Shown here piece after piece: positions 6,272 through 42,153 of a stretch of 64,000 nt of DNA (within the stretch, counting starts at the first letter, position 1; each line of letters begins with the position of its first letter). The stretch is from Candidatus Nomurabacteria bacterium. Lineage in GTDB: Bacteria > Patescibacteriota > Minisyncoccia > Phycocordibacterales > UBA5272. A model generated the notes under the pieces. It was not told where the DNA came from, did not search any database, and worked only from the letters and a program-made list of their open reading frames with translations. The stretch is from assembly GCA_028286645.1 (NCBI GenBank), contig JAQBRF010000004.1, positions 91,501 through 155,500 of the forward strand, given 5' to 3'. The position numbers and the translations under genes were made by a program.

Positions 6272-7025
6272 AAAGAGAAAAAAAAGAGGCTATATCTGGT
6301 ACTCGGTAGTCATATTGCTTATTTTTATATTTGTTTATTTTTGGCCAAGCGTCAGGACATTTTTATACAATTATGTGGAAGGGCCAGTTATCATTTATGG
6401 AAGTACAAGAACAGGAATAGTAAGTATTCCATACAATGTATCAACTTACTTTAAATCAAAAAAAGATTTAGAAGATATAAACCGAGGGCTTGAATTAAAT
6501 ATCGAAAGATTAGAGAACGAAATTGCAGTAAAAGATGCAATTATATCTGATAATAAATTAAGCCAAAATGGTTCTAGTGTTTCGACATTGGAAATGTATT
6601 CGATATTAGAAGATAGTACGAACATTTACTCTACGATAATACTTTCAAAGGGATTTAAAGATGGACTAGAAATAAACAAATTAGTATATCTTCGCGGCAG
6701 ACAGCCCGTATGTATTATCGTAGAAGTACATGATCAGACGTCCGTATGCAAACTTTTATCATCATCCGGATCATTTATCGAAGGGGTAAGTCCAAATGGC
6801 GAAACATTATTTCTGAAAGGAGATGGGGGGGGGACTTTTATTGCTGATATCCCTCGGGATGCCATTTTAAACGAAGGAGATTCTGTACATTTAAAAAGCG
6901 ACCCGACACTTCTTTTGGGGACTGTAGTAAGCATCGTTAAAGACAATCAAGCAACCGCATGGAAAGTATATGTCCGAGGACAATATAATCCAATTACTTC
7001 AAATGTTTTTTATACCGATAAGTAG
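6252..7025 (+). CDS. mreC: rod shape-determining protein MreC
   Basis: Immediately follows and overlaps mreB by 20 nt. N-terminal TM helix, a coiled-coil segment (LELNIERLENEIAVKD), and a Gly-rich beta domain. Confidence 0.7.
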   Translation: MTYLSDKKRKKRGYIWYSVVILLIFIFVYFWPSVRTFLYNYVEGPVIIYGSTRTGIVSIPYNVSTYFKSKKDLEDINRGLELNIERLENEIAVKDAIISDNKLSQNGSSVSTLEMYSILEDSTNIYSTIILSKGFKDGLEINKLVYLRGRQPVCIIVEVHDQTSVCKLLSSSGSFIEGVSPNGETLFLKGDGGGTFIADIPRDAILNEGDSVHLKSDPTLLLGTVVSIVKDNQATAWKVYVRGQYNPITSNVFYTDK

Positions 7026-7101
7026 ATAGAATAGTTATTAGTAATTGGTTACTAGTAATTAGTGAATACACAAAGACATTTGGGAGGCTAATTGTCCGAG
7101 C

Positions 7102-7143
7102 CACAACTAATAACAAATAACTAATTACCATTTTTGCTATACT
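7102..7143 (+). promoter_or_regulatory. promoter with the shared CAACTAATAAC element and TATACT -10
   Basis: cacaactaataacaaataactaattaccatttttgctatact. The 11-mer caactaataac is identical to the element upstream of 42244. The ATG at 7150 lies 6 nt after the -10 box. Confidence 0.35.
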
Positions 7144-7149
7144 CTGCTC

Positions 7150-7305
7150 ATGCTTCGCTACATTATTTATATAATCTTGCTCCTCATAACTCTCTTTTTT
7201 GACACCGCATTAGGTGCACATAGAGTGCCAGTTTTTACATTAATCCTTTGTGTTATAGTGATAATATATGAATTTATTTCGCCGTACATTTACACGTCGC
7301 GCTAG
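7150..7305 (+). CDS. candidate small 2-TM membrane protein (51 aa)
   Basis: Leaderless ATG 6 nt after TATACT. Translation MLRYIIYIILLLITLFFDTALGAHRVPVFTLILCVIVIIYEFISPYIYTSR has two hydrophobic helices. It overlaps the mrdA start in another frame and sits where mreD would normally be, but is too short to call MreD. Confidence 0.25.
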   Translation: MLRYIIYIILLLITLFFDTALGAHRVPVFTLILCVIVIIYEFISPYIYTSR

Positions 7306-8965
7306 ACGTGCAAACTCATACGAAATCGCTCCAGAAGATGTATTCTTAGATTCGCAAAATCTATCGCAATTAAACATGGATCAAATGGAAGGGCAGCTTG
7401 AAAAGCCAATAGGCAGGAACATGTTTTATATAACAAGCATTATTGCATCTTTTTTAATTGTGGGTTTTTTAGCGAGATTGTATGACATGCAGATAGTAAA
7501 CGGAAGAGCATATGCTGACCAGGCAGATAGAAATCATTTAAAAAGCACTCCATTATTTCCTCTTCGAGGAACTATTTCTGATCGCAATGGCAGCTTACTT
7601 GCTTGGAATACTGTGAGTAGTACGACAGAGGAAGTTCCAGAAAGAGTGTATGAAAAAACTCCAGGATTTTCTCACTTGTTAGGTTATGTAAGTTATCCCA
7701 AGAAAGATCAAAGCGGAATCTTTTGGCAAGATTCATATTTAGGAAAAGATGGCATTGAAAAGAAATATCAAGATATTTTACAAGGAACCATCGGTGAGAC
7801 AGTTTTAGCGGTAAATGCCCAACAGAAAGTAGAGGCTAGGAATGTAACCGTAAGTCCTGTTAATGGCGAAAACATAAAACTTAGCATTGATAAAGGAGTG
7901 CAGGCGGAATTTTATAAAAATATTAAAAGTCTAGCGCTTGATTCAGGTTATATAGCGGGGGCGGGAGTAATTATGGATATACATACTGGAGAGGTATTAG
8001 CTATGGTAAGCTATCCGGAATATGATAATAATTTAATTACAAATGCTGCCACTCCACAAGAAAAAGACCAACTGGCAAAAGATTTGCTAGATAAAAATAA
8101 TAAATTTTTAAACCGCGCCGTCGGAGGGCTCTTTACTCCAGGATCAACAGTAAAGCCATTTATGGCAATAGCCGCGCTTATGGAAAATGTAATTACCCCG
8201 GAAAAACAAATTTATAGTTCGGGCGCACTAGTGATAAAGAATAAATACGGAGGACCTGACTCAGTTTTTAAAGATTGGAAAGCTCATGGATGGACAGACA
8301 TGCGTAAAGCTCTTGCTGAATCATCCGATGAATACTTTTATCAGGTAGGGGGCGGATACATGGATCAGCCAGGATTAGGTATTGCTCGCATTGATCAATA
8401 TGCTCAATTGTTCGGATTTGCCACTACCACCGGCATAGATCTTCCCGGAGAAGAATACGGCGTGATTCCCACCCCATCATGGAAGCAAAAGATTTTTAAC
8501 GAAGATTGGCTTTTAGGAGATACATATCATACTTCCATTGGGCAATATGGATTTCAAATAACACCGCTTGAGCTTGTGCGTGGTGTAGCCATGATTGCAA
8601 ATGGCGGATCTTTGGTTACTCCGCATCTTTTATCAGGATCTGAAACTGTACATATTGATTTGAAGTTAGATAAAGCCGACCTCGAAGTCGTGCGTGAAGG
8701 AATGAGACAGGGCGTAACTGAAGGAATCGGCGCAGCATTAAACATAGATGGTATACATGTAGCCTCCAAGTCTGGAACGGCAGAGCTAGGAGTTAAAAAG
8801 GATTTAGTAAATTCGTGGATAAGCGGATTTTTCCCATATGAAAATCCTAAATATGCCTTTGTTGTGATAATGGAAAAGGGCTCGGTCCATAACCTTCATG
8901 GCGCTATATTTGCAATGAGGGATACACTGCTCTGGATGCGCGACAACACTTCTTATACCAAGTAG
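7268..8965 (+). CDS. mrdA: penicillin-binding protein 2 class transpeptidase
   Basis: Follows mreBC. N-terminal TM helix, then the SxxK (GSTVKPF) and KSGT (ASKSGTAE) active-site motifs. Confidence 0.85.
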   Translation: MNLFRRTFTRRARRANSYEIAPEDVFLDSQNLSQLNMDQMEGQLEKPIGRNMFYITSIIASFLIVGFLARLYDMQIVNGRAYADQADRNHLKSTPLFPLRGTISDRNGSLLAWNTVSSTTEEVPERVYEKTPGFSHLLGYVSYPKKDQSGIFWQDSYLGKDGIEKKYQDILQGTIGETVLAVNAQQKVEARNVTVSPVNGENIKLSIDKGVQAEFYKNIKSLALDSGYIAGAGVIMDIHTGEVLAMVSYPEYDNNLITNAATPQEKDQLAKDLLDKNNKFLNRAVGGLFTPGSTVKPFMAIAALMENVITPEKQIYSSGALVIKNKYGGPDSVFKDWKAHGWTDMRKALAESSDEYFYQVGGGYMDQPGLGIARIDQYAQLFGFATTTGIDLPGEEYGVIPTPSWKQKIFNEDWLLGDTYHTSIGQYGFQITPLELVRGVAMIANGGSLVTPHLLSGSETVHIDLKLDKADLEVVREGMRQGVTEGIGAALNIDGIHVASKSGTAELGVKKDLVNSWISGFFPYENPKYAFVVIMEKGSVHNLHGAIFAMRDTLLWMRDNTSYTK

Positions 8966-28995: not shown

Positions 28996-29038
28996 GCTTG
29001 CTTGAACTGTTTCAGCGTTCGGAATGGTTCAAGCAAAG
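28996..29038. repeat. 10-bp inverted repeat ttgcttgaac / gttcaagcaa overlapping the start codon of the HTH gene
   Basis: Arms at 28998-29007 and 29027-29036, with 19 bp between them. Confidence 0.5.
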
Positions 29039-29458
29039 AGCGGGCTTTCAGATGTGGCTAACAAATACAACCTTCATTCAATCAAAACACGCAGAAGCTA
29101 CTCCTTAAAAGAAGTGTCTGTATTGTTGCAAGTTGATAGAAAAACCTGCTCAAGATGGATAAAAGATAAGGGCTTAAAAGTTATTGCTCCTGATACTACT
29201 CCTATTCTTATTATGGGAGCAGACCTAAAGACATTTCTCCTAGAGATGCGCTGTAAGAACAGGGTAGTACTAGGTGAAGATGAGCTTTATTGCCTCAAAT
29301 GTCACTGTGGGAGAAAAGCCAAGAAGGGGAGCGAACAAGTAATTAAGACGGGAAAGAAGATTGGAAAAGAAAAGCAGGAACAGTTCAAAAAAATAGGTAA
29401 CTGTGATACCTGCGGTACTCCAATGCATAAATTCTTAGGGCTCCAGCAGAAGGATTAA
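29024..29458 (+). CDS. HTH DNA-binding protein (excisionase/MerR-like) with a C-terminal zinc ribbon
   Basis: YSLKEVSVLLQVDRKTCSRWIKDKGLKV helix-turn-helix, then CLKCHCG...CDTCG cysteine pairs. Confidence 0.55.
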   Translation: MVQAKSGLSDVANKYNLHSIKTRRSYSLKEVSVLLQVDRKTCSRWIKDKGLKVIAPDTTPILIMGADLKTFLLEMRCKNRVVLGEDELYCLKCHCGRKAKKGSEQVIKTGKKIGKEKQEQFKKIGNCDTCGTPMHKFLGLQQKD

Positions 29459-29499
29459 TAGGTTACTTACCATGACCTGTAAATGTCCCACTCAATACT

Positions 29500-30627
29500 A
29501 TGACAAACAAAGCATATAAAAACGAGACGATAAAGAGAAAATTCTACAGCTATTTAGCTAATTCTTCAAAAGGATTTTCTCCTACTACCATTGATTGTTA
29601 CGATGGTGCTATTTGTCTATGGGAAGATTTTTCTAAGGGAGAGGATTTCTTGTATTTTAGTAAAACAAAAGCAGAAGAATTCAAAGAATGGCTAAGAAAC
29701 AAGAAGAAGGTGCGTTCTTCAGAAAATGTAAGTCTGTCCTATTGTTACGACATGTTGAGATATTTGAGATGTTTCTTCAACTGGTTGTCTCAACAAAAGG
29801 GATACAGAAAAATAACTCAAAGTGATGTTGATTATCTCAATCTATCAAAAAAAGAAAGAAGAGTAGCAATGCAGCCAAAAAGTAAAGTTGTTCCTTCCTT
29901 AGAACAAGTAAAAAAGGTGATTGAAAATATTAAGGGGGAAAATGAAGTGGAGATGCGTGATAGGGCACTTCTGTCTCTTGCCCTGCTGACAGGAGCGCGA
30001 ATTACTGCTTTAACTTCGTTACCTCTAAGGAGTTTTGATAGGGAAAGACAGGTAATTGACCAGAGTCCAGAGCTGAATGTTAAAACTAAATTCTCAAAAA
30101 GAATTGTCTCACCGCTCATTTCCTTTTCATATAAGGAGCCATTAGGATACTTTGTTGAGTGGGTAAATTATTTAACTAGAAAGGGTTTTACAGATGAAGA
30201 CCCGATATTCCCAGCTACCAAAGTACAAAATGGTACAAAAGATGAGCTGGGTTATTTTAATACTGGTGAAGTAGAGCCTACCTTTTGGCAAAGTACATCT
30301 ACTGCAAGAAAGATATTTGAACAGAGGTTTACCCAAGCAGGTATTAGCTATCACAACCCTCACTCTTTTAGACATCTACTAGTTAAAGAAATATCAAAGC
30401 TCCATCTAACCGAGGAGCAGAGAAAAGCCTTCAGTCAAAGTTTAGGGCATGAGGATGTAGGTACAACATTTGGTTCGTACGGATATGGATATATTGATGA
30501 AGATAGACAAATAGAAATTGTTAATAGTATAGATTTTGAAGGGAAACATCATAGAAAAGAATATGTATTTACCGAGGAAGGGATAAATGAACTTATTAGG
30601 AAAGCCAAAGAGGGTGACGAAGTATGA
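29500..30627 (+). CDS. tyrosine-type site-specific recombinase / phage integrase family
   Basis: LALLTGARITAL (box I Arg), HNPHSFRHLLV (HxxR), LGHEDVGTTFGSYGY (catalytic Tyr region). Confidence 0.85.
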   Translation: MTNKAYKNETIKRKFYSYLANSSKGFSPTTIDCYDGAICLWEDFSKGEDFLYFSKTKAEEFKEWLRNKKKVRSSENVSLSYCYDMLRYLRCFFNWLSQQKGYRKITQSDVDYLNLSKKERRVAMQPKSKVVPSLEQVKKVIENIKGENEVEMRDRALLSLALLTGARITALTSLPLRSFDRERQVIDQSPELNVKTKFSKRIVSPLISFSYKEPLGYFVEWVNYLTRKGFTDEDPIFPATKVQNGTKDELGYFNTGEVEPTFWQSTSTARKIFEQRFTQAGISYHNPHSFRHLLVKEISKLHLTEEQRKAFSQSLGHEDVGTTFGSYGYGYIDEDRQIEIVNSIDFEGKHHRKEYVFTEEGINELIRKAKEGDEV

Positions 30628-30786
30628 AACATCCGCTTCCAGGAAAGAAAAAGAAGCTAGTGATTCCTCAAATAATATATCAGGAATGTAACTGCGATGC
30701 GTCTGATTCACAGTTAAGGATAGATAAGGCATTTGATATTCTTTTTGAAGAGCTAATTAGGTCTAAAGAACTAGTGAATAACTAAC

Positions 30787-31005
30787 TTGACATCTATGGA
30801 CAATTTAGAACATACTGTAAATATGGAATTTTATACAAGAAGCGAAGTGGCGACATATCTTAGAGTTCATGAAAGAACTATTATGAGGTGGCTTAAAAGC
30901 GGAGCTCTGAAAGGTTACAAATTAGGAGAAGGAAAAACTGCCGTATGGAGAATTAGGAAGTCTGAAGTAGAGAATTTTCTAAAAAAGCACATAAGTAAAA
31001 AATAA
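30787..31005 (+). CDS. excisionase-family HTH DNA-binding protein
   Basis: 72 aa; YTRSEVATYLRVHERTIMRWLKSGALKGYKLG ... WRIRKSEVENFL matches the Xis/AlpA-type HTH pattern. Confidence 0.65.
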   Translation: MTSMDNLEHTVNMEFYTRSEVATYLRVHERTIMRWLKSGALKGYKLGEGKTAVWRIRKSEVENFLKKHISKK

Positions 31006-31008
31006 TTT

Positions 31009-32640
31009 ATGCCAGAACAATTACAAAATCAAACAAAACTAATTGCTGTTTATGGAAGGGTCTCTAGTTCAAATCAAGAAAACGAGGGAACTATTGAAAC
31101 ACAGCTCTCTGCAGTTAATGAGTTTTCTAAGAAGAATGGCTATACAATTGTGCAGAAATATACTGATGAAGGATGGAGTGGAGATAGTATCGCGAGACCT
31201 GCGTTAGACCAATTGCGAATGGATGCAAAGAAAAAGATTTGGTCTGCAGTTCTAATGTATGACCCAGATAGGTTGGCACGGCGCTATTCCTATCAAGAGT
31301 TGATTATGGATGAATTGAAGGAAGCTGGAATTGAAGTCATATTTGTAACAGTTTCCGCCCCGAAGAATAGTGAAGATAAAATTCTCTACGGAGTACGAGG
31401 TTTATTTGCTGAATACGAAAGGGCAAAGATTGCAGAACGCTTCCGACTAGGAAAAGTTCGTAAAGCAAACGAAGGCCATATTATTGCTAGTGAGGCACCT
31501 TATGGGTATACATTCATTACAAGAAATTCTGAAAGACAAGGTTACTACGAAATAAACGAAATTGAAGCAATTATCGTTAGGAAAATATTTACCTGGGTAG
31601 CTGACGAGGGTTTAACTTTACGAGCCATAGTTAAGCGTCTTCAGAATGAGGGAATACTACCTCGTAAAAGCAAAAGAGGTGTATGGAACACAAGTACATT
31701 AAGCACCCTATTACGAAATAAGACATACATAGGGGAAGCCCACTATGGTGCATCTTATGCTGTGGTTCCATTAAAACCGATTAAGAAGGAAGGCTATAAG
31801 AAAATAAAGAAAACGAGTAGACGAAATAAGCCTGAAAGTGAGTGGATTAAAATTTCTACTCCAAAAATTATTGAGGAAGAACTATTTATACGAGTAGGGC
31901 AAAGATTAAAGTCTAATTTTGAAAAGGCAGTAAGAAATACTAAAAATGAATATCTTCTCGCTGGTTCTATTTGGTGCTCGTGTGGAAATAGGCGGGCAGG
32001 GGAAGGGCCTCAACATGGTAAACACTTATATTACAGATGTACTAATCGCGGATATTGCTATCCTTTACCACGCACTTGTTTTGAAGGAGGAGTAAACGCA
32101 AGAATTGCTGATAAATTAGTTTGGCAAAAAGTCAGTATGCTTATGAGTTCTCCTGAACTTCTAACAAGACAAGCAGAACGATGGCTTAATAATAAGGTGA
32201 GCAGCAAACCTGCGGCCGCTACTGATATTTCAATATTAAGAAAAGAGATTGAAAAACTTAAAGACTCACAAGAACGATACATGAAAGCATATGGTGCGAA
32301 TGTCATCTCTTTAGAGCAGTTAACAGAATACACAGCACCTTTAAAAGAAAAAATGACTTCTCTGGATAGTCAAATAAAGCAAACTGAACTCGCAAATAAT
32401 CAGTTAAATGAAATACCACTACCCAAGAAAGAGGAAATAGAAGAGTTTGCACACAAGGCAAGCCATGAACTCAAAAATTTGAGCTTTAAGGCGAAACAGG
32501 AGATAATAAGAAGCATTATTGAAAAGGTCGTAGGTAATCAACAAGAACTAATAATATCAGGGTTTATACCCGTACAATATCTCAACCATGTCTCATTCTG
32601 CTCTCTCCATCGGAATCGTCGGATTGCCAAATGTAGGTAA
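31009..32640 (+). CDS. large serine recombinase (resolvase domain + recombinase domain + zinc ribbon + coiled coil)
   Basis: N-terminal LIAVYGRVSSSNQ catalytic Ser motif, a recombinase domain, a Cys-rich CSCGNRR...YYRCTNRGYCY ribbon, and a C-terminal coiled coil. The last 53 nt overlap the ychF start. Confidence 0.85.
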   Translation: MPEQLQNQTKLIAVYGRVSSSNQENEGTIETQLSAVNEFSKKNGYTIVQKYTDEGWSGDSIARPALDQLRMDAKKKIWSAVLMYDPDRLARRYSYQELIMDELKEAGIEVIFVTVSAPKNSEDKILYGVRGLFAEYERAKIAERFRLGKVRKANEGHIIASEAPYGYTFITRNSERQGYYEINEIEAIIVRKIFTWVADEGLTLRAIVKRLQNEGILPRKSKRGVWNTSTLSTLLRNKTYIGEAHYGASYAVVPLKPIKKEGYKKIKKTSRRNKPESEWIKISTPKIIEEELFIRVGQRLKSNFEKAVRNTKNEYLLAGSIWCSCGNRRAGEGPQHGKHLYYRCTNRGYCYPLPRTCFEGGVNARIADKLVWQKVSMLMSSPELLTRQAERWLNNKVSSKPAAATDISILRKEIEKLKDSQERYMKAYGANVISLEQLTEYTAPLKEKMTSLDSQIKQTELANNQLNEIPLPKKEEIEEFAHKASHELKNLSFKAKQEIIRSIIEKVVGNQQELIISGFIPVQYLNHVSFCSLHRNRRIAKCR

Positions 32641-33700: not shown

Positions 33701-34399
33701 CTATCTTACCTCTAGAAATACTTTAGGTTTGGTGGTGATAATGCGATCCTTTATTTCTGGAAAGATTTTACCTAATTGGATATTCTCAAAAAATATTGTT
33801 AATTCTCCATCATATGGATAGGCATTGGCATCATACAGAACATTTTTTATTTTTACTCTTTTTAACATTTCGGGCATTTCCTCAATGACATAGTGTGCCA
33901 TTCGGTTGATTTGTTGGTCATCGAAAGTTCGATTTTCATTCTTTGTGAATCCTTTGATTATTCCCTTTAATGTATCTTTAAACAATGGATTACTTTCGTA
34001 GTAATTATACAGAAACTTTACATCTTCTTTGTATCGGTCATCCATTAAATCCTTCCACGAGGCATAAATAATCTTTTCTTTTTCTTCTAAGCTAAAGCTT
34101 TTATCAATCTCATTTTTTACTTTTTCTATAATCACATTTCCCATTTTGTTAGAAAGTTCTAAGGCTTTAGCATGGGTAATGCCATTTCTAACCTCTAAGT
34201 TTATGGCATGAATATAATCAGCCACATATACCACAACGACGTCTTTGGTATGTTCTAAAGACCAACGGGTAAGTGCAACTATGTTTTCTACAGTAAACCA
34301 TTTATTTCCCAAACTTACTCCTATTCCTATTGTGTACTGCTTCTGTTGAAGTTCTTCCAAGTTGCCTCCTCTAATTTTACGAAGTTCCATGATACACAA
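33701..34399 (-). CDS. tRNA-dependent cyclodipeptide synthase (CDPS)
   Basis: IGIGVSLGNKWFTVENIVALTRWSLEHTKDVVVVYVADYIHAINL aligns with the AlbC-type motif IGISAGNSYFSQKNTVMLLQWA...VVYVDTHIDEML, including the catalytic Ser. Downstream, HYVIEEMPEM matches the CDPS Y[VI]xxExP motif with the catalytic Tyr and Glu. Size is about 230 aa. Confidence 0.75.
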   Translation of the reverse strand: MCIMELRKIRGGNLEELQQKQYTIGIGVSLGNKWFTVENIVALTRWSLEHTKDVVVVYVADYIHAINLEVRNGITHAKALELSNKMGNVIIEKVKNEIDKSFSLEEKEKIIYASWKDLMDDRYKEDVKFLYNYYESNPLFKDTLKGIIKGFTKNENRTFDDQQINRMAHYVIEEMPEMLKRVKIKNVLYDANAYPYDGELTIFFENIQLGKIFPEIKDRIITTKPKVFLEVR

Positions 34400-34427
34400 A
34401 TTTTAACATAAATTATATATAAATTAG

Positions 34428-34436
34428 ATGTTATAA
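34428..34436 (+). promoter_or_regulatory. extended -10 TGTTATAAT, 8 nt before the ATG of the aaRS-like gene, in the shared divergent promoter region
   Basis: The 45-bp CDPS/aaRS-like intergenic region is AT-rich and carries -10-like boxes on both strands. Confidence 0.4.
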
Positions 34437-34444
34437 TTCTATCC

Positions 34445-35188
34445 ATGAATCAGGAGTATTCTGCCGATTATAAGTTAAGTCTATATATAAACAGGATAAG
34501 AGCCTTTTTACTAAATCAGGGATTTTTCGAGCATCATTTATACTCTACAACTAATTACAAAATTGAAAACACAGATACTTTTCCTTTAAAGGATGGCATA
34601 TCTTTACGTTATAATCCTGAACCAGATATTTGGCAGATAGGTATTAAGTACGATAAATTTTTCTGGATTGGCAGTATGTTTAGAAATGAAAAAGAGATTA
34701 ATGAAACCAGAAGATATGAATTTACGGTAGTGGACATTTACCAACCAAATGGGAGACAAGAAGATGTTGTAAGTAAATTTATAGAAATATTGAAAATGTT
34801 GGAAGAAAGGTTAAAATTACCAGTTTTATCTTCATGTGAAGTTAAAACAATGCTTCATGAGGAATTCAATAAGGAGGACAGAATATTACCTTCAGGTAGG
34901 TGCTGGCTTCTAGTTACTAATTATCCAATTGTAGAATCATTTTATGACACAGGAAAAGATTCTGATTATACTTCTAAATTCGAAATTTACTTTGTTGATG
35001 AAGGCGTGCCTTTAGAAATAGCCGCTTGTGGAAATTTAGGGGAAAATATAAATAAAGTTAATTATATTTCGAGTGAAGATAGTTACATTAATCAAGAAAT
35101 AATAAATAAAAAGTTTATCGGTTTTGGTTTTGGGTTAGAAAGATTAATTTTTTTGTATGATCGGGAAGCTATCGACCATACAGAATGA
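34445..35188 (+). CDS. truncated class IIb aminoacyl-tRNA-synthetase-like catalytic core (LysRS/AsxRS paralog; EpmA- or AsnA-archaeal-type-like), no anticodon-binding domain
   Basis: Motif 2 MFRNEKEINETRRYEFTVVDIY (FRNE...EFT) and motif 3 GFGFGLERLIFLY (GxGxGxERL) are present; only 247 aa. Transcribed divergently from the CDPS. Confidence 0.7.
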   Translation: MNQEYSADYKLSLYINRIRAFLLNQGFFEHHLYSTTNYKIENTDTFPLKDGISLRYNPEPDIWQIGIKYDKFFWIGSMFRNEKEINETRRYEFTVVDIYQPNGRQEDVVSKFIEILKMLEERLKLPVLSSCEVKTMLHEEFNKEDRILPSGRCWLLVTNYPIVESFYDTGKDSDYTSKFEIYFVDEGVPLEIAACGNLGENINKVNYISSEDSYINQEIINKKFIGFGFGLERLIFLYDREAIDHTE

Positions 35189-35189
35189 T

Positions 35190-35320
35190 CATGGGTGATG
35201 CCTACTTGTACTAGCGGCGAGAGGCCAGTCCGCATCTCAACAAAAAGGTAGGGCAGGTACGCTCTGCACGTAATCCCATCAAAGCCTACGGACCACGAGC
35301 TGGCGCGAAATCGCCAGCTC
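35190..35320 (+). ncRNA. GC-rich structured element ending in an intrinsic terminator (candidate small RNA or 3' UTR element)
   Basis: A 130-nt stretch markedly GC-richer than its surroundings with several internal pairings (gcgg...ccgc, ccuac...guagg). It ends with the gagctggcg-cgaaat-cgccagctc hairpin plus tttcttttt. Confidence 0.25.
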
Positions 35321-35375
35321 TTTCTTTTTATATTATCGTTTGACTTACTAAAAATAAGATGTAGTGTTTGGGTAA
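35317..35375. repeat. 59-bp direct repeat, copy 1 (58/59 identical to 41559..41617)
   Basis: gctctttctttttatattatcgtttgacttactaaaaataagatgtagtgtttgggtaa. Weaker similarity continues for about 85 bp further, into a degenerate copy of the 5' end of the 41641 HTH gene. Confidence 0.8.
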
Positions 35376-35560
35376 TCATTTTGCCTCGAGGTGCGTATGA
35401 GTGAGCCTACATTTCGTAAGGTTGTTAATTTACAGGAGTTGGCGTAGCATTTGCAAACTCTGCGAAGGATGGCAAAAGGTCGGTCCATTCAATGACCGGG
35501 GCTTAATTGAATTCTATCTATGGAATCTTGTGTTGCGAGTCGGTTGAATTGAGTCTAATA

Positions 35561-35566
35561 TATAAC
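35561..35566 (+). promoter_or_regulatory. -10 box TATAAC, 6 nt before the ATG at 35573 (leaderless)
   Basis: tatataaccatacaATG. Confidence 0.35.
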
Positions 35567-35572
35567 CATACA

Positions 35573-38500
35573 ATGGAATTTATTAAAATATTTACCCAGT
35601 TAAATAAAAACAACGCACCTATTGCTGGAGGAAAAGGGGCCTCCTTGGGGGAAATGACTCAGGCGGGGATTCCGGTTCCGCCTGGATTTGTTATTTTATC
35701 TGAGACTTTTGATCATTTTTTATCGGAAACAGATTTAACGCAGGAAATTGAATTGATTTTAAAGAAAATAAATCATAATGAGATTCATGCTGTAGAGTCT
35801 GCCTCAGAAGAGATTCGGAATTTAATACTTCACAAAGATATTCCAGCAGATATTGAAGAAGGGATAATTAAATCGTTTAAAGAACTTAATGCTACCTACG
35901 TAGCAGTGAGATCATCTGCCACAGCAGAAGATGGAGCGGACCATGCTTGGGCAGGTCAACTAGAAACTTATTTAAATACTACAGAAGAAGACCTTCTTCG
36001 TAATGTAAAGCTTTGCTGGTCATCGCTTTTTACTCCGAGGGCCATTTTTTACAGATTTGAAAAGGAGCTAGATCAAACTAAAATTTCTGTAGCCGTAGTT
36101 ATACAAAAGATGGTGGAATCAGAGGTTTCAGGAATTGCCTTTTCAGTTCATCCTGTAACTGAAGATTATAACCAACTCATTATAGAAGCCGGATTTGGCT
36201 TAGGCGAAGCCATTGTGTCGGGGGCGGTTACTCCGGATTCATATATCGTGACAAAGAATTCACGGGAAATCGATATAAATGTATTTACGCAAAGCCGCGC
36301 ACTTTATAGATCTGTTAATAAAAATACGGAAGATGGAAATAACGAATGGAAGATAATCTCCGAGCCTCAGGCTTCATCTCAAGTACTTACAAATGATCAG
36401 ATTTTAGAACTTACTGAAATTATTATCACCATCGAGAATCATTACGGATTTCCATGTGATATCGAATGGGCGTACGAAAAAGGAAAGTTTTACATAGTCC
36501 AAAGCAGGCCCATCACAACTTTGAAAGGAAATATTGATTTATTAATAAAAACAAAAGAAGTTAATTTTAAAAAGGAGGATTATGTAATTACGTTTTGGGC
36601 ATCAGGCGTGAGTATTATATATACCGATATGGTTAAGGATATGTACCTACCGTATGATCCGCTGTTATGTATTTATGAAAATAAATATTATCAATATTTA
36701 TCGAAAACCGCTTATGACCAAGCAGGGAAAGATGGTATAGATTTATATGGCAATAAAGAAGCATATTATAAATATGAAGAAGATTTAAAAAAGGTAAGTC
36801 TTGATTTTAAGCGCTTTCGTGATAAGCGAATAAGTGAAACCTTTATCACTAAAGAAATACTTGAAGATTTTATAATGTATTCTAGCAAATTGCACCGAGG
36901 GTACAGTAAAATGGGATATGAGCATACCGACAAAGCTTTTTCTTTAGCAAATGAAAACCCTATAATTGCGGAGACCTTAAAAGAAGTTTCTATATTTAAG
37001 GACCAGATTAGAGCTGTAATAAATGAGATGTATTTTGAAAAAGGTTCATTGTTAGAGAATCTTTTAATACGATTAGAAAACCAGTTTCATGTTTCTTCTG
37101 GCGATTTATTAAATTATACTCAACAAGAATTACTCAATCTTTTTGATGGCAGCTTTGTCTCAAAGGAAGAGCTAGAAACTCGCGCCCTTGGTTTTGCTAT
37201 TCAGGGAATAGGCGGTGAAATTAAATTCTTTACAGGGAAAGTTGTAGAAAAAATAATTAACCAATTAGCTGAGCATATATTAGATAATAGAAATGAAATA
37301 AAAGGAATAATCGCGAATAAGGGTAAAGTATCTGGTCGAGTAAAAAAAATTAATGTTGATTATAGTGATTTTACGAAGCTAAATCAAGAAATCGAAAAGA
37401 TGAAAAATGGGGAAATTCTAGTGGCCGAAACCACTGCTCCTGAATTAATTATCGCTTGCCGAAAAGCTTCCGCTATAGTGACGGATCAAGGAGGCTTAAT
37501 GTCCCACGCCGCCATAATAAGCAGAGAATTTAATATTCCATGTATAGTTGGAACTAAATATGCTAGCCAGATTCTTCAGGATGGTGACGAAGTTGAAGTG
37601 GACGCAGATAAGGGAATAATAAAGATTTTAAAGAAAGCGGATCGAGAAAATTATCTCTTTTATTATGAATCACAGGGCTATTATTTTATTTTAGATGATC
37701 TTATTGTGGAATCATATATTGATTGGCCAATAGTTGAGATGCGAAGAGGAGACTGGAAACGGGTGTATATGACCGAAGAAGATATTCAAGAAAATTATCT
37801 TAAGGGACTTTCTTTTACAGAAAAAGAAATTAAGAAGAAAACCGATAATATACGACGACTGATTGAAAAAATAAGAAAAGTAAATTTTAATAATGCGCCA
37901 AAAGAAATAATTCTTAGTGGATTACAGATGATGGAAGATTTATTCGAATCATATAAATACCTTGATACCTCGTTTAGTGAGGGTTTATATGAGAAAAATA
38001 TCTCTGATCTTAGAGTGCTTATTATTGAACAATCTAAAAACCTTATACGAGATGATTTTGATTATATCTTTTTTAAGGACGGTGGAATATTGCGGCAATT
38101 ACTAACGGCTACAGCATTGCTCACTGGAACAAAAGCAGAAGATATAAGATGGTATCGCACTAAAGAGTTAAAAAGACTTATAAATGAACCTTATGAGATT
38201 TCTTCTTCTGAGATCCAAGCAAGATCTAAAGCTGCTGTCTTTGATAAAGACAGGAATGGAAATATAACTTTTTATTCGGGCCAAGAAGCAGAAGACTTTA
38301 TACAAAAGTTTGATAAAGAATTTGAAAAAGATAAGACTGAAGTGCTTAAGGGAACTGTTGCGTATGGAAATGGGGGTAAAATTAAAGGAATAGTTACTAT
38401 CATACATCGCGACTATTCGAATCTTTCAAAATTAGGTATTGATATGGAAAGGATGGCACCAGGTTCAATTTTAATAACAACCATTACAGACCCTGAATTC

Positions 38501-38689
38501 CTCCCTGCTATGAAGAAGGCCAGCGCAATAGTCACGGACATTGGAGGACTCTTGTCACACGCTGCTATTTCCGCAAGGGAACTCAAGGTTCCATGCATCG
38601 TAGGAACTCAGATTGCCACTAAGACTCTAAAAGATGGAGACGAAATTGAAATTGATATGAATACAGGAGCTATAAAATTCTTATCATGA
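35573..38689 (+). CDS. PEP-synthase/rifampin-phosphotransferase-like kinase: N-terminal PPDK_N ATP-grasp domain plus two PEP-utilizing phosphohistidine swivel domains, with no PEP/pyruvate TIM barrel
   Basis: N-terminus APIAGGKGASLGEM...PVPPGF, VAVRSSATAEDGADHAWAGQ, CDIEWAYEKGKFYIVQSRPIT. Swivel domains at about residues 620-700 (GGLMSHAAIISREFNIPCIVGT) and 960-1040 (GGLLSHAAISARELKVPCIVGT). The start is set at the MEFIKIF Met. Confidence 0.8.
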   Translation: MEFIKIFTQLNKNNAPIAGGKGASLGEMTQAGIPVPPGFVILSETFDHFLSETDLTQEIELILKKINHNEIHAVESASEEIRNLILHKDIPADIEEGIIKSFKELNATYVAVRSSATAEDGADHAWAGQLETYLNTTEEDLLRNVKLCWSSLFTPRAIFYRFEKELDQTKISVAVVIQKMVESEVSGIAFSVHPVTEDYNQLIIEAGFGLGEAIVSGAVTPDSYIVTKNSREIDINVFTQSRALYRSVNKNTEDGNNEWKIISEPQASSQVLTNDQILELTEIIITIENHYGFPCDIEWAYEKGKFYIVQSRPITTLKGNIDLLIKTKEVNFKKEDYVITFWASGVSIIYTDMVKDMYLPYDPLLCIYENKYYQYLSKTAYDQAGKDGIDLYGNKEAYYKYEEDLKKVSLDFKRFRDKRISETFITKEILEDFIMYSSKLHRGYSKMGYEHTDKAFSLANENPIIAETLKEVSIFKDQIRAVINEMYFEKGSLLENLLIRLENQFHVSSGDLLNYTQQELLNLFDGSFVSKEELETRALGFAIQGIGGEIKFFTGKVVEKIINQLAEHILDNRNEIKGIIANKGKVSGRVKKINVDYSDFTKLNQEIEKMKNGEILVAETTAPELIIACRKASAIVTDQGGLMSHAAIISREFNIPCIVGTKYASQILQDGDEVEVDADKGIIKILKKADRENYLFYYESQGYYFILDDLIVESYIDWPIVEMRRGDWKRVYMTEEDIQENYLKGLSFTEKEIKKKTDNIRRLIEKIRKVNFNNAPKEIILSGLQMMEDLFESYKYLDTSFSEGLYEKNISDLRVLIIEQSKNLIRDDFDYIFFKDGGILRQLLTATALLTGTKAEDIRWYRTKELKRLINEPYEISSSEIQARSKAAVFDKDRNGNITFYSGQEAEDFIQKFDKEFEKDKTEVLKGTVAYGNGGKIKGIVTIIHRDYSNLSKLGIDMERMAPGSILITTITDPEFLPAMKKASAIVTDIGGLLSHAAISARELKVPCIVGTQIATKTLKDGDEIEIDMNTGAIKFLS

Positions 38690-39798
38690 ATATATTAGAG
38701 TATATTAAATCTAATACCTATGAGCGTCTCGTCCGGTATCCACGGATTCCTGTTTTATATGCCGAAGCAATGAATGAGGGTTTACAAAATAATCCATATT
38801 TTGATCTTGCTGATTCTATTCCTAACCCCTCAATTATTGTTTATATTAATGATATTTATGAAGCGTGGATAAAAATATCAGGACGTGTTATTGTAAGCGA
38901 CCTTGAATCCATAAAAGAAATAGAAACAGCAAGCTTAAAGTGTATAGAAAGAAATCAATCTATTTTGGAGGATATCTTAAATTTAAAAGATGAATTATCT
39001 GACAAAGAGGTGATTATTGAAATGATTAAAAAAACAAATTCTGCGTCCTCAGATATATATAAGCATTTTATATTCTTTATAGATGAAAGTTTCAGAGTTT
39101 CTGATCAGGAAATAATCGAAAGCTTACAAAGTACTCGTCTGAAGTTAGACCTCCTAGTTACTGAATATTTATTTCCTGCCTTTGAAAGGTTAGTTAATGA
39201 ACTTGTTGAGGTTTATGATTTTCCTAAAGAAACAGTAGAAAAAATGACAACCTCTGAAATAATTGAATCTTTAAAAGATTATGATTATCTTATAAAACTT
39301 GAAAATATCAGTGCCCGACCTATATGTTTTTTGCTGGCAGACAATACCATTAAGGTCCTTTTCAGTAAAGAAGCAAAAGATGTGTGCTCTTATTTATATA
39401 AGCAAGACACAGATAAAAAAATATTTGATCAGGCTTTAGAAAGTAAAACCTTAAAAGGAAATATTGGTAACCAAGGAAAAGTTCGAGGGAAAGTTAGAAA
39501 GCTTTTAGCTAAGGATTTCTTCAATAAAGATAAACTTGCTAATCTATCTCAAGGAGATAAGTTTGTTTTGGTTACTTCTATGACGGCTCCTGAGCTTGTG
39601 CCTTATTTTAAAAATGCAATTGCGTTTGTAACTGACGAAGGTGGGATCACATGCCATGCGGCGATTATCGCTCGCGAATTAAATATTCCTTGTATTATAG
39701 GAACCAAGGTAGCTACAGAAGTTATAAATGACGGTGACGACGTGGAAGTGGATGCATATAAAGGGTTAGTAAAAATAATTAATAATTTAAATAGATAA
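38686..39798 (+). CDS. PEP-utilizing-enzyme mobile (phosphohistidine swivel) domain protein with an uncharacterised 250-aa N-terminal domain
   Basis: C-terminal LKGNIGNQGKVRGKV...GGITCHAAIIARELNIPCIIGT. Overlaps the upstream gene by 4 nt (ATGA). Confidence 0.7.
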   Translation: MNILEYIKSNTYERLVRYPRIPVLYAEAMNEGLQNNPYFDLADSIPNPSIIVYINDIYEAWIKISGRVIVSDLESIKEIETASLKCIERNQSILEDILNLKDELSDKEVIIEMIKKTNSASSDIYKHFIFFIDESFRVSDQEIIESLQSTRLKLDLLVTEYLFPAFERLVNELVEVYDFPKETVEKMTTSEIIESLKDYDYLIKLENISARPICFLLADNTIKVLFSKEAKDVCSYLYKQDTDKKIFDQALESKTLKGNIGNQGKVRGKVRKLLAKDFFNKDKLANLSQGDKFVLVTSMTAPELVPYFKNAIAFVTDEGGITCHAAIIARELNIPCIIGTKVATEVINDGDDVEVDAYKGLVKIINNLNR

Positions 39799-39800
39799 AC

Positions 39801-40832
39801 ATGTCAAATTTGCAAGAGTATAGATACATAATGAATCGCTCTTTATCACTTATTGCCTGTGAATTATGGGACAAAGGAGAAAGGCTAATGATGCCAGAAA
39901 AGCTAGCTCAAAAGATTTTCTTTGACCCTCTTTTTATTTACAGAATGAATAAGGCTGTAACAATCTATTATAATTTTACTGACCCGAAACAAAGTCTTAA
40001 TTCAGTCGCACAATACCTTAATGAAAATGAAAGTATTTTTGATGAATTAAAGGACCAATTTGATGTAGATTGCTATGAAATAAGACAAATGATAGATCGA
40101 AAAAAGCCTGAAGAATTTAATAATCTCTTCGAAAAAGTAATTTGTATTTGGCCATTAATTGCTATTAGCAATGTTTTAGGAGATGACAGGGATTATCTTC
40201 CAATTGTTAAAGAGAGTATGCGGGAAAAGTATTTGCTTATTAGGAAAGAAAGTGACGGTCTGTGGCAAAAAGGAGCCAAAATACTTCAAATACAAGCTGA
40301 ACATCTTATACCCCAGAAGTATTTACCATGGTCTGAGTTCCTTCTATCTAAGGAGGTTATTTCTAAAGAGTTGCCATCCATTACAGAACTAAAAAAAAGA
40401 AAAGATGGATATCTTTATCATAAGGGATCACTTTATGTAAATGAAACGACAGAGATCTATTTAAAAGATAACCAATATTTCCTTACCGAGAATGAAAAGC
40501 CTTCAGCGGAAGTTAAGATAATAAAAGGAATATCTGCCATGAAGGGAAAAGTAATAGGAAAAGTCAAAGTTATTTTTGAAAAGAAGGATATAAAAAAAAT
40601 TGAAAAGGGAGATATACTAGTCACTCCTATGACGTCTCCTAATTTAATAGAGGCCATGAATAGAGCTGCAGGATTTGTAACAGATGAAGGAGGTGTCACG
40701 TGTCATGCGGCGATTATCGCTCGCGAAATGGGAAAGCCTTGCATAATTGCGACAAAGATAGCAACCAAAGTGCTTAATGATGGAGATCTGGTTGAAGTGG
40801 ATGCAGATAGCGGAAGAGTTATAAAATTATAG
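39801..40832 (+). CDS. PEP-utilizing-enzyme mobile (phosphohistidine swivel) domain protein with an uncharacterised N-terminal domain
   Basis: C-terminal IKGISAMKGKVIGKV...GGVTCHAAIIAREMGKPCIIAT. Starts 2 nt after the upstream stop. Confidence 0.7.
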   Translation: MSNLQEYRYIMNRSLSLIACELWDKGERLMMPEKLAQKIFFDPLFIYRMNKAVTIYYNFTDPKQSLNSVAQYLNENESIFDELKDQFDVDCYEIRQMIDRKKPEEFNNLFEKVICIWPLIAISNVLGDDRDYLPIVKESMREKYLLIRKESDGLWQKGAKILQIQAEHLIPQKYLPWSEFLLSKEVISKELPSITELKKRKDGYLYHKGSLYVNETTEIYLKDNQYFLTENEKPSAEVKIIKGISAMKGKVIGKVKVIFEKKDIKKIEKGDILVTPMTSPNLIEAMNRAAGFVTDEGGVTCHAAIIAREMGKPCIIATKIATKVLNDGDLVEVDADSGRVIKL

Positions 40833-40894: not shown

Positions 40895-40932
40895 ATGTAT
40901 TGATCTAGTTACCCATAACAGGGAGTTGAAAC

Positions 40933-41514
40933 ATGGACCAAAATCGTGAAATCTGGCTTGCTCGCCACTTTCCTGCGGAAAACACAGGCGAGGTCGGCTG
41001 GCAGCAAAACGCCAAGCTTCGCCCGGAAGCAGAGAACATGGCCGAACGCGTGAAGGTGGCATATCTGCAATCGGTGTCGTTTGCTGCATTCGGCTGCTCC
41101 ATGATGGACCGGGCTCACGCGAGTCTCGGGCTCCTGTTTTTGGAGATAGGGAATGGCAACAAGGTGCCGGTGACTTGTCAGAGCCTCGGCCCGCTTAATC
41201 CCGACGAGTGGGGGTTTTTCGGACAACTGAAGACCGGAACCATCGAGGAAATACACGAGCATGCACCAGAAGGTCTGCTCGACCGCGAAGGTGTACGCGT
41301 TCTGGAGAGAGGCGTTATCATGTTCGCCGACGCCTGGCTTCAGCCCGGAGAGAAAGCTTTCCTCGTTTCCCATACGCCCTTTATAGAAGGTGCACTCGCC
41401 GCTCTCAAGGGTTACTGGGATCTCGAGTTCACGATGGGAAAAGGCGACATCCTCGTCTTCACCATTGGCGAACGCGGCGTCGAAAGCACTCGGCATCTGA
41501 TAGTTCCGAAGTAG
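40933..41514 (+). CDS. SixA-like histidine phosphatase family protein, GC-rich class
   Basis: IWLARHFPAE (RHG-like RHF) and FLVSHTPFIEGALAAL (VSHxP) resemble phosphohistidine phosphatase SixA. GC-rich with an SD. Confidence 0.45.
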   Translation: MDQNREIWLARHFPAENTGEVGWQQNAKLRPEAENMAERVKVAYLQSVSFAAFGCSMMDRAHASLGLLFLEIGNGNKVPVTCQSLGPLNPDEWGFFGQLKTGTIEEIHEHAPEGLLDREGVRVLERGVIMFADAWLQPGEKAFLVSHTPFIEGALAALKGYWDLEFTMGKGDILVFTIGERGVESTRHLIVPK

Positions 41515-41558
41515 CGTTCGTGCTCCTGTGGTATTTTAGCCGGCGGCTCTATGCGCCG

Positions 41559-41617
41559 GCTCTTTCTTTTTATATTATAGTTTGACTTACTAAAAATAAG
41601 ATGTAGTGTTTGGGTAA
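41559..41617. repeat. 59-bp direct repeat, copy 2
   Basis: gctctttctttttatattatagtttgacttactaaaaataagatgtagtgtttgggtaa. Preceded by a terminator hairpin (gccggcg...gcgccggc) whose sequence differs from the hairpin before copy 1 but whose structure is analogous. Confidence 0.8.
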
Positions 41618-41640
41618 ACTCATTCACCTGCGGGGCAGCT

Positions 41641-42153
41641 ATGAAAAGGACGGTAGAATCTGGGAAATTGCATTTGCCGGAGCTCGCGAAATATCTGCAA
41701 ATGTGCCGGCTCATGATGAAGCCTCGCCTTAACCAGCGAGAATTCTCACAAAAGATCGGCACTAGTGATCATGTGGTGATTGATCTGGAATGTGGCGTAA
41801 CCATGGACCCGAAGCGAGCCATTCTGGAAAAATGGGCCAAAGTGACTGGAGGCTCATACACCAGGATGGTTCAGATTCTGACCTTCGAGAAGTTCGGCAT
41901 TGCGGTGGTTCCTTCAACGTGCGGGAGTGTCTGGTCTTCGCAAATCCTTCAGATGGGGGGAGAGTTGGTAATGGTGACACTGCAGAAATGCGAACCGTTG
42001 CCTTTCCTCTTCTCGGCATCAAAGCAGGAAAGCGATAAGAAGTTCCAGTCTCGGAAACGAGCAACAAGGGATGAGATCGAAAGGTTCAAGGAAACTCCGC
42101 GTCCAACCATGTCTGTAGGGCGCGTTGTTTCCGGACGATCCACACGTGGCTAA
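41641..42153 (+). CDS. XRE-family helix-turn-helix protein, GC-rich class
   Basis: LNQREFSQKIGTSDHVVIDLECG Cro/C1-type HTH near the N-terminus. Its 5' region has a degenerate duplicate at 35376-35460. Confidence 0.5.
   Translation: MKRTVESGKLHLPELAKYLQMCRLMMKPRLNQREFSQKIGTSDHVVIDLECGVTMDPKRAILEKWAKVTGGSYTRMVQILTFEKFGIAVVPSTCGSVWSSQILQMGGELVMVTLQKCEPLPFLFSASKQESDKKFQSRKRATRDEIERFKETPRPTMSVGRVVSGRSTRG

Follow-up and report, generated by a model that had tools for sequence, protein, structure and literature searches.

A cyclodipeptide synthase and a minimal class IIb synthetase-like protein, probably unrelated neighbours in a Candidatus Nomurabacteria genome

In a metagenome-assembled genome of Candidatus Nomurabacteria (Patescibacteria, or candidate phyla radiation, CPR), two genes lie back to back, one encoding a cyclodipeptide synthase (CDPS) and the other a 247-aa protein resembling the catalytic core of a class IIb aminoacyl-tRNA synthetase (aaRS). 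Both belong to the window, i.e. the whole 64,000-nucleotide stretch of DNA analysed here, which lies on a contig of 514 kb (514,133 bp); they are deposited as JWN37_514 and JWN37_515, both under the name of hypothetical protein. With a probability of roughly 0.75, we consider the two to be functionally independent accessory genes that came to lie back to back by chance. A first-pass annotation of this DNA had proposed that the aaRS-like enzyme is a dedicated supplier for the CDPS, which, if true, would have made this CDPS the first to receive its aminoacyl donor from an enzyme of its own and would have opened a route to non-canonical diketopiperazines. The evidence runs opposite to such a module, and a functional coupling of the two genes is unsupported. 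The CDPS is of an already known kind, and the aaRS-like protein is a new form of stand-alone class II aaRS catalytic-core paralog.

Occurrence of the two genes in other genomes

With regard to the pairing, the loci of each family were searched for the other partner by tblastn with the window CDPS and with family hidden Markov models (HMMs), that of the CDPS being built from 120 homologues, at E<=1. The aaRS-like sample comprised 35 loci, which reduced to 26 distinct ones, 14 of them with at least 1 kb on each side; the CDPS sample comprised nine distinct contexts (L036 to L046) out of more than 150 CDPS clusters. No CDPS was found in any of the 26 aaRS-like loci, those of DPANN archaea included, and no aaRS-like gene was found in any of the nine CDPS contexts. 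A conserved partner was likewise observed neither for the CDPS nor for the aaRS-like gene in the loci examined. The first-pass annotation had named a lack of conserved synteny as an outcome that would count against its dedicated supplier, and this lack is what the loci exhibit.

The list of the aaRS-like family is complete with 53 matches, each representing a cluster, versus at least 151 clusters for the CDPS, which is thus about threefold larger. When the 53 aaRS-like matches and the best 120 of at least 151 CDPS matches are compared by the length of their longest contig, the only length common to both is that of the window contig. The near-complete CDPS contigs of 300-680 kb carry this family only, without any aaRS-like gene, and the aaRS-like contigs, which reach 876 kb (a complete chromosome), also carry one family only. 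At L035, which holds the closest partial relative of the window aaRS-like gene (71 aa compared, 75% identical), the upstream gene encodes 202 aa and is unrelated.

The composition of the region is also informative. A stretch of low GC content, from about 33.6 to 40.9 kb, comprises the CDPS (32.9%), the aaRS-like gene (30.4%) and the three genes that follow it (31.7-34.8%), compared with 38.9 +/- 4.2% for the window and with 41.6% and 39.4% for the flanking ychF and alaS. It begins about 1 kb downstream of recombinase genes, namely a tyrosine integrase and a large serine recombinase at 29500..32640, 1-4 kb upstream of the CDPS. The CDPS itself is among the few minus-strand genes of a window that is nearly all plus-strand. 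As the low-GC stretch lies beside recombinases, the adjacency of the two genes is most likely incidental, the simplest reading being that one variable region received two accessory genes of patchy distribution. By our own rough estimate, a CPR genome has about 500 genes, of which about 20 encode synthetases or synthetase-like proteins, so that a CDPS would have such a neighbour by chance in several per cent of cases, which is unremarkable for an observation made post hoc.

The cyclodipeptide synthase

The CDPS matched PF16715 with 46.5 bits in the Pfam profile search (cut-off 27) and TIGR04539 with 69.5 bits in the NCBIfam profile search (cut-off 45). Both hallmark motifs given in the first-pass annotation are present, as G24-V-S26-L-G-N29..F32...N36...L40..W43 and Y167-V-I-E-E171-M-P173. 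In the PDB sequence search, the protein matched 7QB8 and its mutants without gaps (1-229 versus 1-229, E 2.7e-68, 46% identity), and S26, Y55, D58, Y167, E171, E174, Y191, and P192 are kept between the two. The pair Y191-P192 is the signature of the XYP subfamily (Tyr-Pro at positions 202/203 of AlbC). The initial assignment of this gene as a CDPS with the catalytic Ser, Tyr, and Glu is therefore confirmed. Its coordinates required a small correction: both open reading frames (ORFs) exist as described, and the CDPS, on the minus strand, starts at 34390, not at 34399. The TTG at 34399 would add three codons that are unused by the homologues; since all homologues and the deposited annotation start at the ATG (MELRK..., 229 aa), the gene is that of Table 1 and the divergent spacer measures 54 bp.

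7QB8 is ParcuCDPS, an enzyme of Parcubacteria bacterium RAAC4_OD1_1, a member of the XYP subfamily and no. 90 of Gondry et al. 2018, the products of which are cyclo(His-Pro) (44%) and cyclo(His-Glu) (56%) (PMC5816076). Its crystal structure and mutants were obtained later; the catalytic residues are S26, Y167, E171, and Y191, together with D58 of the Ser/Asp dyad, Y167 being equated with Y178 of AlbC (PMC7613923). The window CDPS is like ParcuCDPS in length (229-230 aa), in its XYP signature, in the catalytic residues S26, D58, Y167, and E171, and in Y55 and E174 of the histidine pocket. The sole pocket residue that differs is at position 189, with N in the window CDPS and Y in ParcuCDPS. This position is variable among the best 120 of at least 151 CDPS homologues (Y in 74, F in 22, and N in 14), in which S26, D58, Y167, E171, and P192 are invariant and each of which is 40-52% identical to ParcuCDPS. 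The family is large in Patescibacteria (at least 151 clusters) and uniform in length. Judged by its sequence, the window CDPS is an ordinary member of this family, which has a crystallised and biochemically characterised representative. Scans of the CDPS and of the aaRS-like protein with PADLOC and PHROGs gave zero matches.

The window CDPS can be expected to form a cyclodipeptide from two aminoacyl-tRNAs. It would draw them from the housekeeping pool, charged by the ordinary synthetases of the cell. By homology, the mechanism would be ping-pong, with an aminoacyl-enzyme formed on Ser26 with the assistance of Asp58, then a dipeptidyl-enzyme, from which the diketopiperazine would be released. 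As Y55 and E174 of the histidine pocket persist in the window CDPS, its first substrate would probably be His-tRNAHis, and a histidine-containing product is likely.

The neighbours of the other Patescibacteria CDPSs are varied (Table 1). In two Parcubacteria-type genomes (L036 980-6253 and L037 941-6253), the CDPS starts 9-10 nt past pheT and seems to share the transcript of a genuine synthetase operon. PheT of these loci also matches NLPC_P60 (Pfam), and a ThrRS gene lies nearby on the opposite strand. Small GNAT acetyltransferases adjoin the CDPS at L038 (4406-4903) and L045 (4760-5203), and another lies between pheS and pheT at L037 (2156-2641), with pheT separating it from the CDPS. Hydrolases also recur beside the CDPS, including a peptidase S51, a Ser hydrolase, HAD proteins, and a CYTH protein (L041 5744-7057, L044 3754-4359, and L046 5211-6406). 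These GNATs and hydrolases could be tailoring or recycling enzymes of diketopiperazines.

The aaRS-like family and the possible explanations of the pair

The aaRS-like protein exhibits a class IIb fold with motifs 2 and 3, recognised by FRNE (79-82), EFT (92-94), and GFGFGLERL (226-234). The N-terminal OB-fold domain, which binds the anticodon, is missing: a length of 247 aa leaves no room for it, the structural model begins at the motif 1 helix (H3-24), and the N-terminal region of about 170 aa of LysRS has no counterpart in the alignment. The first-pass annotation described this architecture correctly. The PF00152 model (class II D/K/N core) is barely reached, with 26.9 bits for a cut-off of 25. 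The scores against more specific models are far below their curated cut-offs, with 19.6 bits for LysRS TIGR00499 (427.6), 11.2 for AspRS (443), and 17.8 and 16.4 for the EpmA/GenX models TIGR00462 (286.9) and NF006828 (264), and none of the NCBIfam AsnA models matches at E<=1. The protein is thus outside the LysRS, EpmA, and AsnA families as curated. In the structural comparison, the scores were 19.5 for archaeal AsnA (3P8T), 19.5 and 19.4 for AsnRS, 19.3 for LysRS, 18.9 for AspRS, 18.8 for GenX/EpmA (3A5Y), and 16.9 for E. coli AsnA; the similarity to AsnA is not above that to AsnRS or LysRS. The solved relatives nearest by sequence are LysRS (E 6e-6) and PylRS.

Outside the family, the closest sequences are those of EpmA/GenX/PoxA, the (R)-beta-lysine ligase of EF-P, and of class II LysRS. 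When the aaRS-like family is aligned with LysRS and sequences of the EpmA type, residues E59, F79, R80, E82, F93, Y99, E180, E191, G226, G230, and R233 are invariant; the shared features are the APE-type Glu, the FRNE motif 2, the EFT, the two Mg2+ Glu, and the GxGxGxxR motif 3. From their roles in LysRS, we take E59, the APE glutamate, to bind the alpha-amino group, F93 to stack on the adenine, and E180 and E191 to be the Mg2+ ligands, with F79, R80, and E82 belonging to motif 2 and G226, G230, and R233 to motif 3. EpmA likewise has no anticodon-binding domain. EpmA is longer than the aaRS-like protein by about 80 residues, and the insertions that separate motif 2 from motif 3 are far shorter in the aaRS-like family, with the length of the motif 2 loop retained. 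Another difference is in the lysine side-chain pocket, in which the segment E-I-A-N-x-F-x-E-L of LysRS and EpmA is replaced by E-I-A-A-C-G-x-L-G. D97 and Y99 were considered for assigning the amino acid substrate and were rejected, as both are also found in LysRS and in enzymes of the AspRS type and hence have no discriminating value.

Based on these residues, we conclude that the aaRS-like protein is, as predicted from its sequence, a catalytically competent adenylate-forming enzyme with an altered side-chain pocket and without an anticodon-reading module. The conservation of the Arg and Glu of motif 2, of the Arg of motif 3, of the two Mg2+ Glu, and of the alpha-amino Glu suggests that it would make an alpha-aminoacyl-adenylate from ATP. 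From the adenylate, the aminoacyl group would next go to an acceptor chosen without the anticodon, and the enzyme would not serve the CDPS specifically. That it represents a new ligase family, with a substrate or an acceptor unlike those of LysRS, EpmA, and AsnA and with no link to the CDPS, has in our view an even chance of being correct.

When 1.84 billion representative proteins were searched with a profile, no more than 39 matches were found at E<=1e-10, 18 of them at E<=1e-30, followed by a gap down to about E 5e-9. Of the 82 matches beyond this gap, 80 are of the LysRS/EpmA type, and 17 also touch AsnA models. The family, with proteins of about 240 aa in 53 clusters, is found in Patescibacteria (Minisyncoccia, Saccharibacteria, and others) and, as a further difference from EpmA and class II LysRS, also in DPANN archaea (Pacearchaeota, Nanoarchaeota, and Woesearchaeota). 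The bacterial copies are 51-62% identical to the window protein and the archaeal ones 48-53%, the latter lying on archaeal contigs beside archaeal neighbours, namely the genes of the small subunit of primase and of ribosomal protein S19e. Other bacteria have a divergent branch, 225-300 aa in length, with the same signature motifs. No relatives were found in the viral contigs scanned with both aaRS-like profiles. In the literature searched on CDPSs in CPR/Patescibacteria, on aaRS paralogs in DPANN and CPR, and on aaRS-like proteins lacking the anticodon domain, neither the family nor the pairing is described.

All-against-all clustering of the neighbouring ORFs gave no recurrent partner across lineages. 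The neighbours are diverse, of housekeeping or mobile kinds; those with Pfam matches include ArgRS, an IleRS-type gene, Mur ligase, RidA, a T2SS ATPase, RuvB, primase, Fic, UvrB, GTPases, an HD domain protein, a methyltransferase, a LexA-like peptidase, a DEAD helicase, an EamA transporter, a tyrosine integrase, and a HIT protein. Of about 18 loci scanned, 5 have a tRNA gene no more than about 300 nt from the aaRS-like one, compared with about 4% expected per locus by our own rough estimate. As these tRNAs are of diverse identities (Glu, Val, Ser, Ser, and Trp), insertion sites of islands fit better than a cognate tRNA. This proximity, together with adjoining integrases in L021 and L048, suggests that the aaRS-like gene is carried on integrative islands; it is probably a rare accessory gene that is transferred horizontally.

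Three arrangements around members of the family can be mentioned. In a single organism with a complete Patescibacteria chromosome of 876 kb (L001 6001-7169, equivalent to L006 8001-9169, and L002), a HIT-family (histidine triad) gene overlaps the aaRS-like gene by 4 nt, at its stop codon. HIT proteins hydrolyse aminoacyl-adenylates, which is consistent with an adenylate-forming role. At L016, the homologue follows ArgRS, and directly downstream of it lies a gene (5226-8741) for a 1172-aa class I synthetase of the Ile/Val/Leu type, in which a histidine phosphatase domain (His_Phos_1) separates the catalytic core from the anticodon-binding domain. At L048 (1897-7125; also L049-L051), the gene of the 265-aa protein P0200, of the divergent branch, overlaps that of a 531-aa SSF-like transporter by 4 nt, in apparent translational coupling. 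It is flanked by a toxin-antitoxin pair (Gp49/HigB-HTH) and by a tyrosine integrase that adjoins a tRNA-Pro; the region looks like an island with a ligase and a transporter as cargo.

With regard to the explanations of the pair, the proposal that the aaRS-like enzyme makes a special, maybe non-canonical, aminoacyl-tRNA or adenylate for the adjoining CDPS can draw on the divergent adjacency across 54 bp, on the low GC content and the aminoacyl chemistry common to both, and on the side-chain pocket unlike that of LysRS and EpmA, which makes a non-standard substrate possible. Pathway-dedicated aaRS paralogs also have precedents in the seryl-tRNA synthetase VlmL with VlmA, in the LysRS-MprF fusions of LysX, and in the SerRS-like amino acid:carrier-protein ligases (PMC2922099). 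The concept is alike, i.e. an extra class II enzyme feeding an aminoacyl group to a non-ribosomal consumer. However, these paralogs are fused to their partners or are conserved neighbours of them, whereas the present pairing is found in a single genome and in none of the other loci sampled. Moreover, ParcuCDPS is served by the standard His-, Pro-, and Glu-tRNAs (PMC7613923), the CDPS family is much the larger one and its near-complete contigs of 300-680 kb lack the aaRS-like gene, and the aaRS-like family is also present in DPANN archaea, at loci without a CDPS. A dedicated module is therefore extremely improbable. We find scarcely plausible a bolder version, in which the protein founds a new family, being the natural class IIb aaRS-like ligase of least size, with exchange between Patescibacteria and DPANN archaea; it would activate a non-standard amino acid and load it onto the acceptor end of a tRNA with no reading of the anticodon, and the adjacent CDPS would use this product for an unusual diketopiperazine.

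The first-pass annotation offered as a fallback that the aaRS-like gene encodes an AsnA-type asparagine synthetase, tRNA-independent and ammonia-dependent, lying beside the CDPS by chance. The incidental adjacency is the part of this that appears to be right. AsnA does share the catalytic-domain-only architecture, but the failure of the AsnA models to match, together with the LysRS/EpmA type of 80 of the 82 nearest sequences outside the family, only 17 of which also touch AsnA models, speaks against this assignment. The identity to AsnA (E. coli 11AS and archaeal AS-AR 3P8T) is 14-16%. Asp/Asn enzymes carry a QSPQ motif and an Asp-binding Arg; the aaRS-like family exhibits NPEP instead of the former and lacks an Arg where the latter would be. 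An asparagine synthetase is thus very unlikely.

The protein could also be an EpmA/GenX-like protein aminoacylase, or a minimal tRNA synthetase recognising the acceptor stem only, in either case unrelated to the CDPS. The retained length of the motif 2 loop would suit this, as would the often translation-flavoured neighbours (ArgRS and the IleRS-type gene at L016, ychF, GTPases, and ribosomal proteins) and the nearby tRNA genes of five loci. Nevertheless, those tRNAs are all different, which suits insertion sites of islands better than a cognate tRNA, and the residues of the lysine pocket are replaced. The scores against the EpmA and LysRS models are far below the cut-offs, no efp or epmB was found among the neighbours at the 26 loci, and the family is far too rare for a core translation factor. 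In addition, DPANN archaea use aIF5A and not EF-P. We regard this explanation as unlikely. The first-pass description of the protein as a truncated class IIb paralog of the LysRS/AsxRS type is correct.

Several observations weigh against two independent genes placed side by side by chance. In one Patescibacteria lineage, the CDPS lies inside a genuine pheS-pheT operon, so that a linkage of CDPSs to aminoacylation genes is not unheard of in this group, and the 54-bp divergent spacer is compatible with co-regulation. The nine CDPS contexts are drawn from more than 150 clusters, and the closest relatives of the window CDPS (P0055-P0058, 55-58% identity, on short contigs) fall outside the sample. 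Co-occurrence at the level of genomes was judged indirectly, from the lengths of the longest contigs, and 31 of the 151 CDPS matches fall outside the comparison of contigs.

The interest of the aaRS-like gene lies in its rare family of class IIb cores, about 240 aa long, which keeps the adenylation site intact, is covered by no curated model, and is common to two ultra-small, host-dependent groups, Patescibacteria and DPANN archaea. The identification of its substrate and acceptor could extend the short list of aaRS-derived ligases, which comprises EpmA, AsnA, HisZ, and the amino acid:carrier-protein ligases, and the family would also show the limit to which a class II core can be reduced.

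Genomic setting of the two genes

The CDPS converges on ychF, the stop codons being 6 bp apart, and the aaRS-like gene is followed by a terminator-like hairpin (Table 1), so that each gene looks monocistronic. The spacer between their start codons is AT-rich and divergent, as first described, with a length of 54 bp in place of 45 bp. It contains a TATAAT-like sequence, and a consensus scan of it gave no match for a two-hexamer sigma-70 promoter; a shared regulatory element in the spacer is unsupported.

The segment between the aaRS-like stop codon and the terminator has a GC content of 0.546, versus 0.389 for the window. A co-transcribed tRNA-like acceptor was considered for this segment and rejected: there is no Rfam match at E<=10 (35100-35560 scanned) and no tRNA or tmRNA (ARAGORN), the fold of the plus strand is not significantly more stable than those of shuffled sequences (z -1.1), and no similar sequence is found in the other aaRS-like loci. 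More generally, no RNA genes were found near the pair with Rfam at the gathering threshold over the whole window or with ARAGORN.

Table 1 Features of the window around the two genes, CDPS loci in other genomes, and tRNA genes near aaRS-like genes
Feature	Location	Strand	Details
CDPS, XYP subfamily, ParcuCDPS type, 229 aa	33701..34390	-	PF16715, TIGR04539, alignment to PDB 7QB8
Divergent AT-rich spacer between the two start codons, 54 bp	34391..34444	.	
Minimal class IIb aaRS-like catalytic core, 247 aa, orphan family	34445..35188	+	
GC-rich segment, 108 nt	35189..35296	+	between aaRS-like stop codon and terminator
Intrinsic-terminator-like hairpin and T-run, end of aaRS-like transcript	35297..35320	+	9-pair stem, 7 GC pairs, then TTTCTTTTTA
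CDPS locus	L036, L037		pheS-x-pheT-CDPS-peptidase C39_2
CDPS locus	L038, L045		GNAT adjoining CDPS
CDPS locus	L039		CDPS-NUDIX
CDPS locus	L040		GIY-YIG-CDPS
CDPS locus	L041-L043		CDPS-peptidase S51-HAD
CDPS locus	L044		uvrB-CDPS-Ser hydrolase
CDPS locus	L046		CDPS-x-CYTH-HAD
tRNA near aaRS-like gene	L007 1324-1397		
tRNA near aaRS-like gene	L010 7656-7730		
tRNA near aaRS-like gene	L013 8752-8841		
tRNA near aaRS-like gene	L025 116-205		
tRNA near aaRS-like gene	L026 614-685		

Upstream of ychF and the CDPS, the region 29024-32640 encodes a helix-turn-helix (HTH) protein, the tyrosine integrase (29500-30627), a small excisionase-like HTH ORF (30787-31005), and the serine recombinase (31009-32640), and is possibly the boundary of a mobile element.

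Downstream of the aaRS-like gene, three co-directional genes (35507-40832) encode an ATP-grasp PPDK_N domain followed by four phosphoenolpyruvate (PEP)-utiliser modules, each comprising a divergent region of about 200-250 aa and a conserved swivel phosphohistidine domain. Two modules are fused in a 1060-aa protein, and the two others are found one each in proteins of 370 aa and 343 aa; the mutual identity of the four swivel parts is 35-53%. This looks like an unusual multi-module phosphotransferase set of the Rph/PigC/PEP-synthase-like kind. Its role as a PigC-like tailoring partner of the CDPS was considered and rejected, as no PPDK_N or PEP-utilizers family is found among the genes of the CDPS contexts. 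A link with the aaRS-like gene was also rejected, the only match being an unrelated swivel domain about 7.5 kb from the aaRS-like gene at L013.

The PEP-utiliser block is bracketed by the two copies of a direct repeat (35309-35460 and 41551-41704), which share a near-identical core of about 65 nt (35316-35380 and 41558-41624) and lie upstream of genes whose starts are at 35507 and 41641. The repeat is made up of a T-run after a terminator hairpin and a promoter-like sequence, TTGACT...TAGTGT. Between 40800 and 42200, a block of 50-56% GC, with a composition foreign to the remainder of the window, contains ORFs overlapping on both strands (40909-41496 on the minus strand; 40933-41514, 41208-41585, and 41641-42153 on the plus strand). 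These ORFs have no Pfam matches, and the one of 170 aa exhibits a weak HTH-like match.

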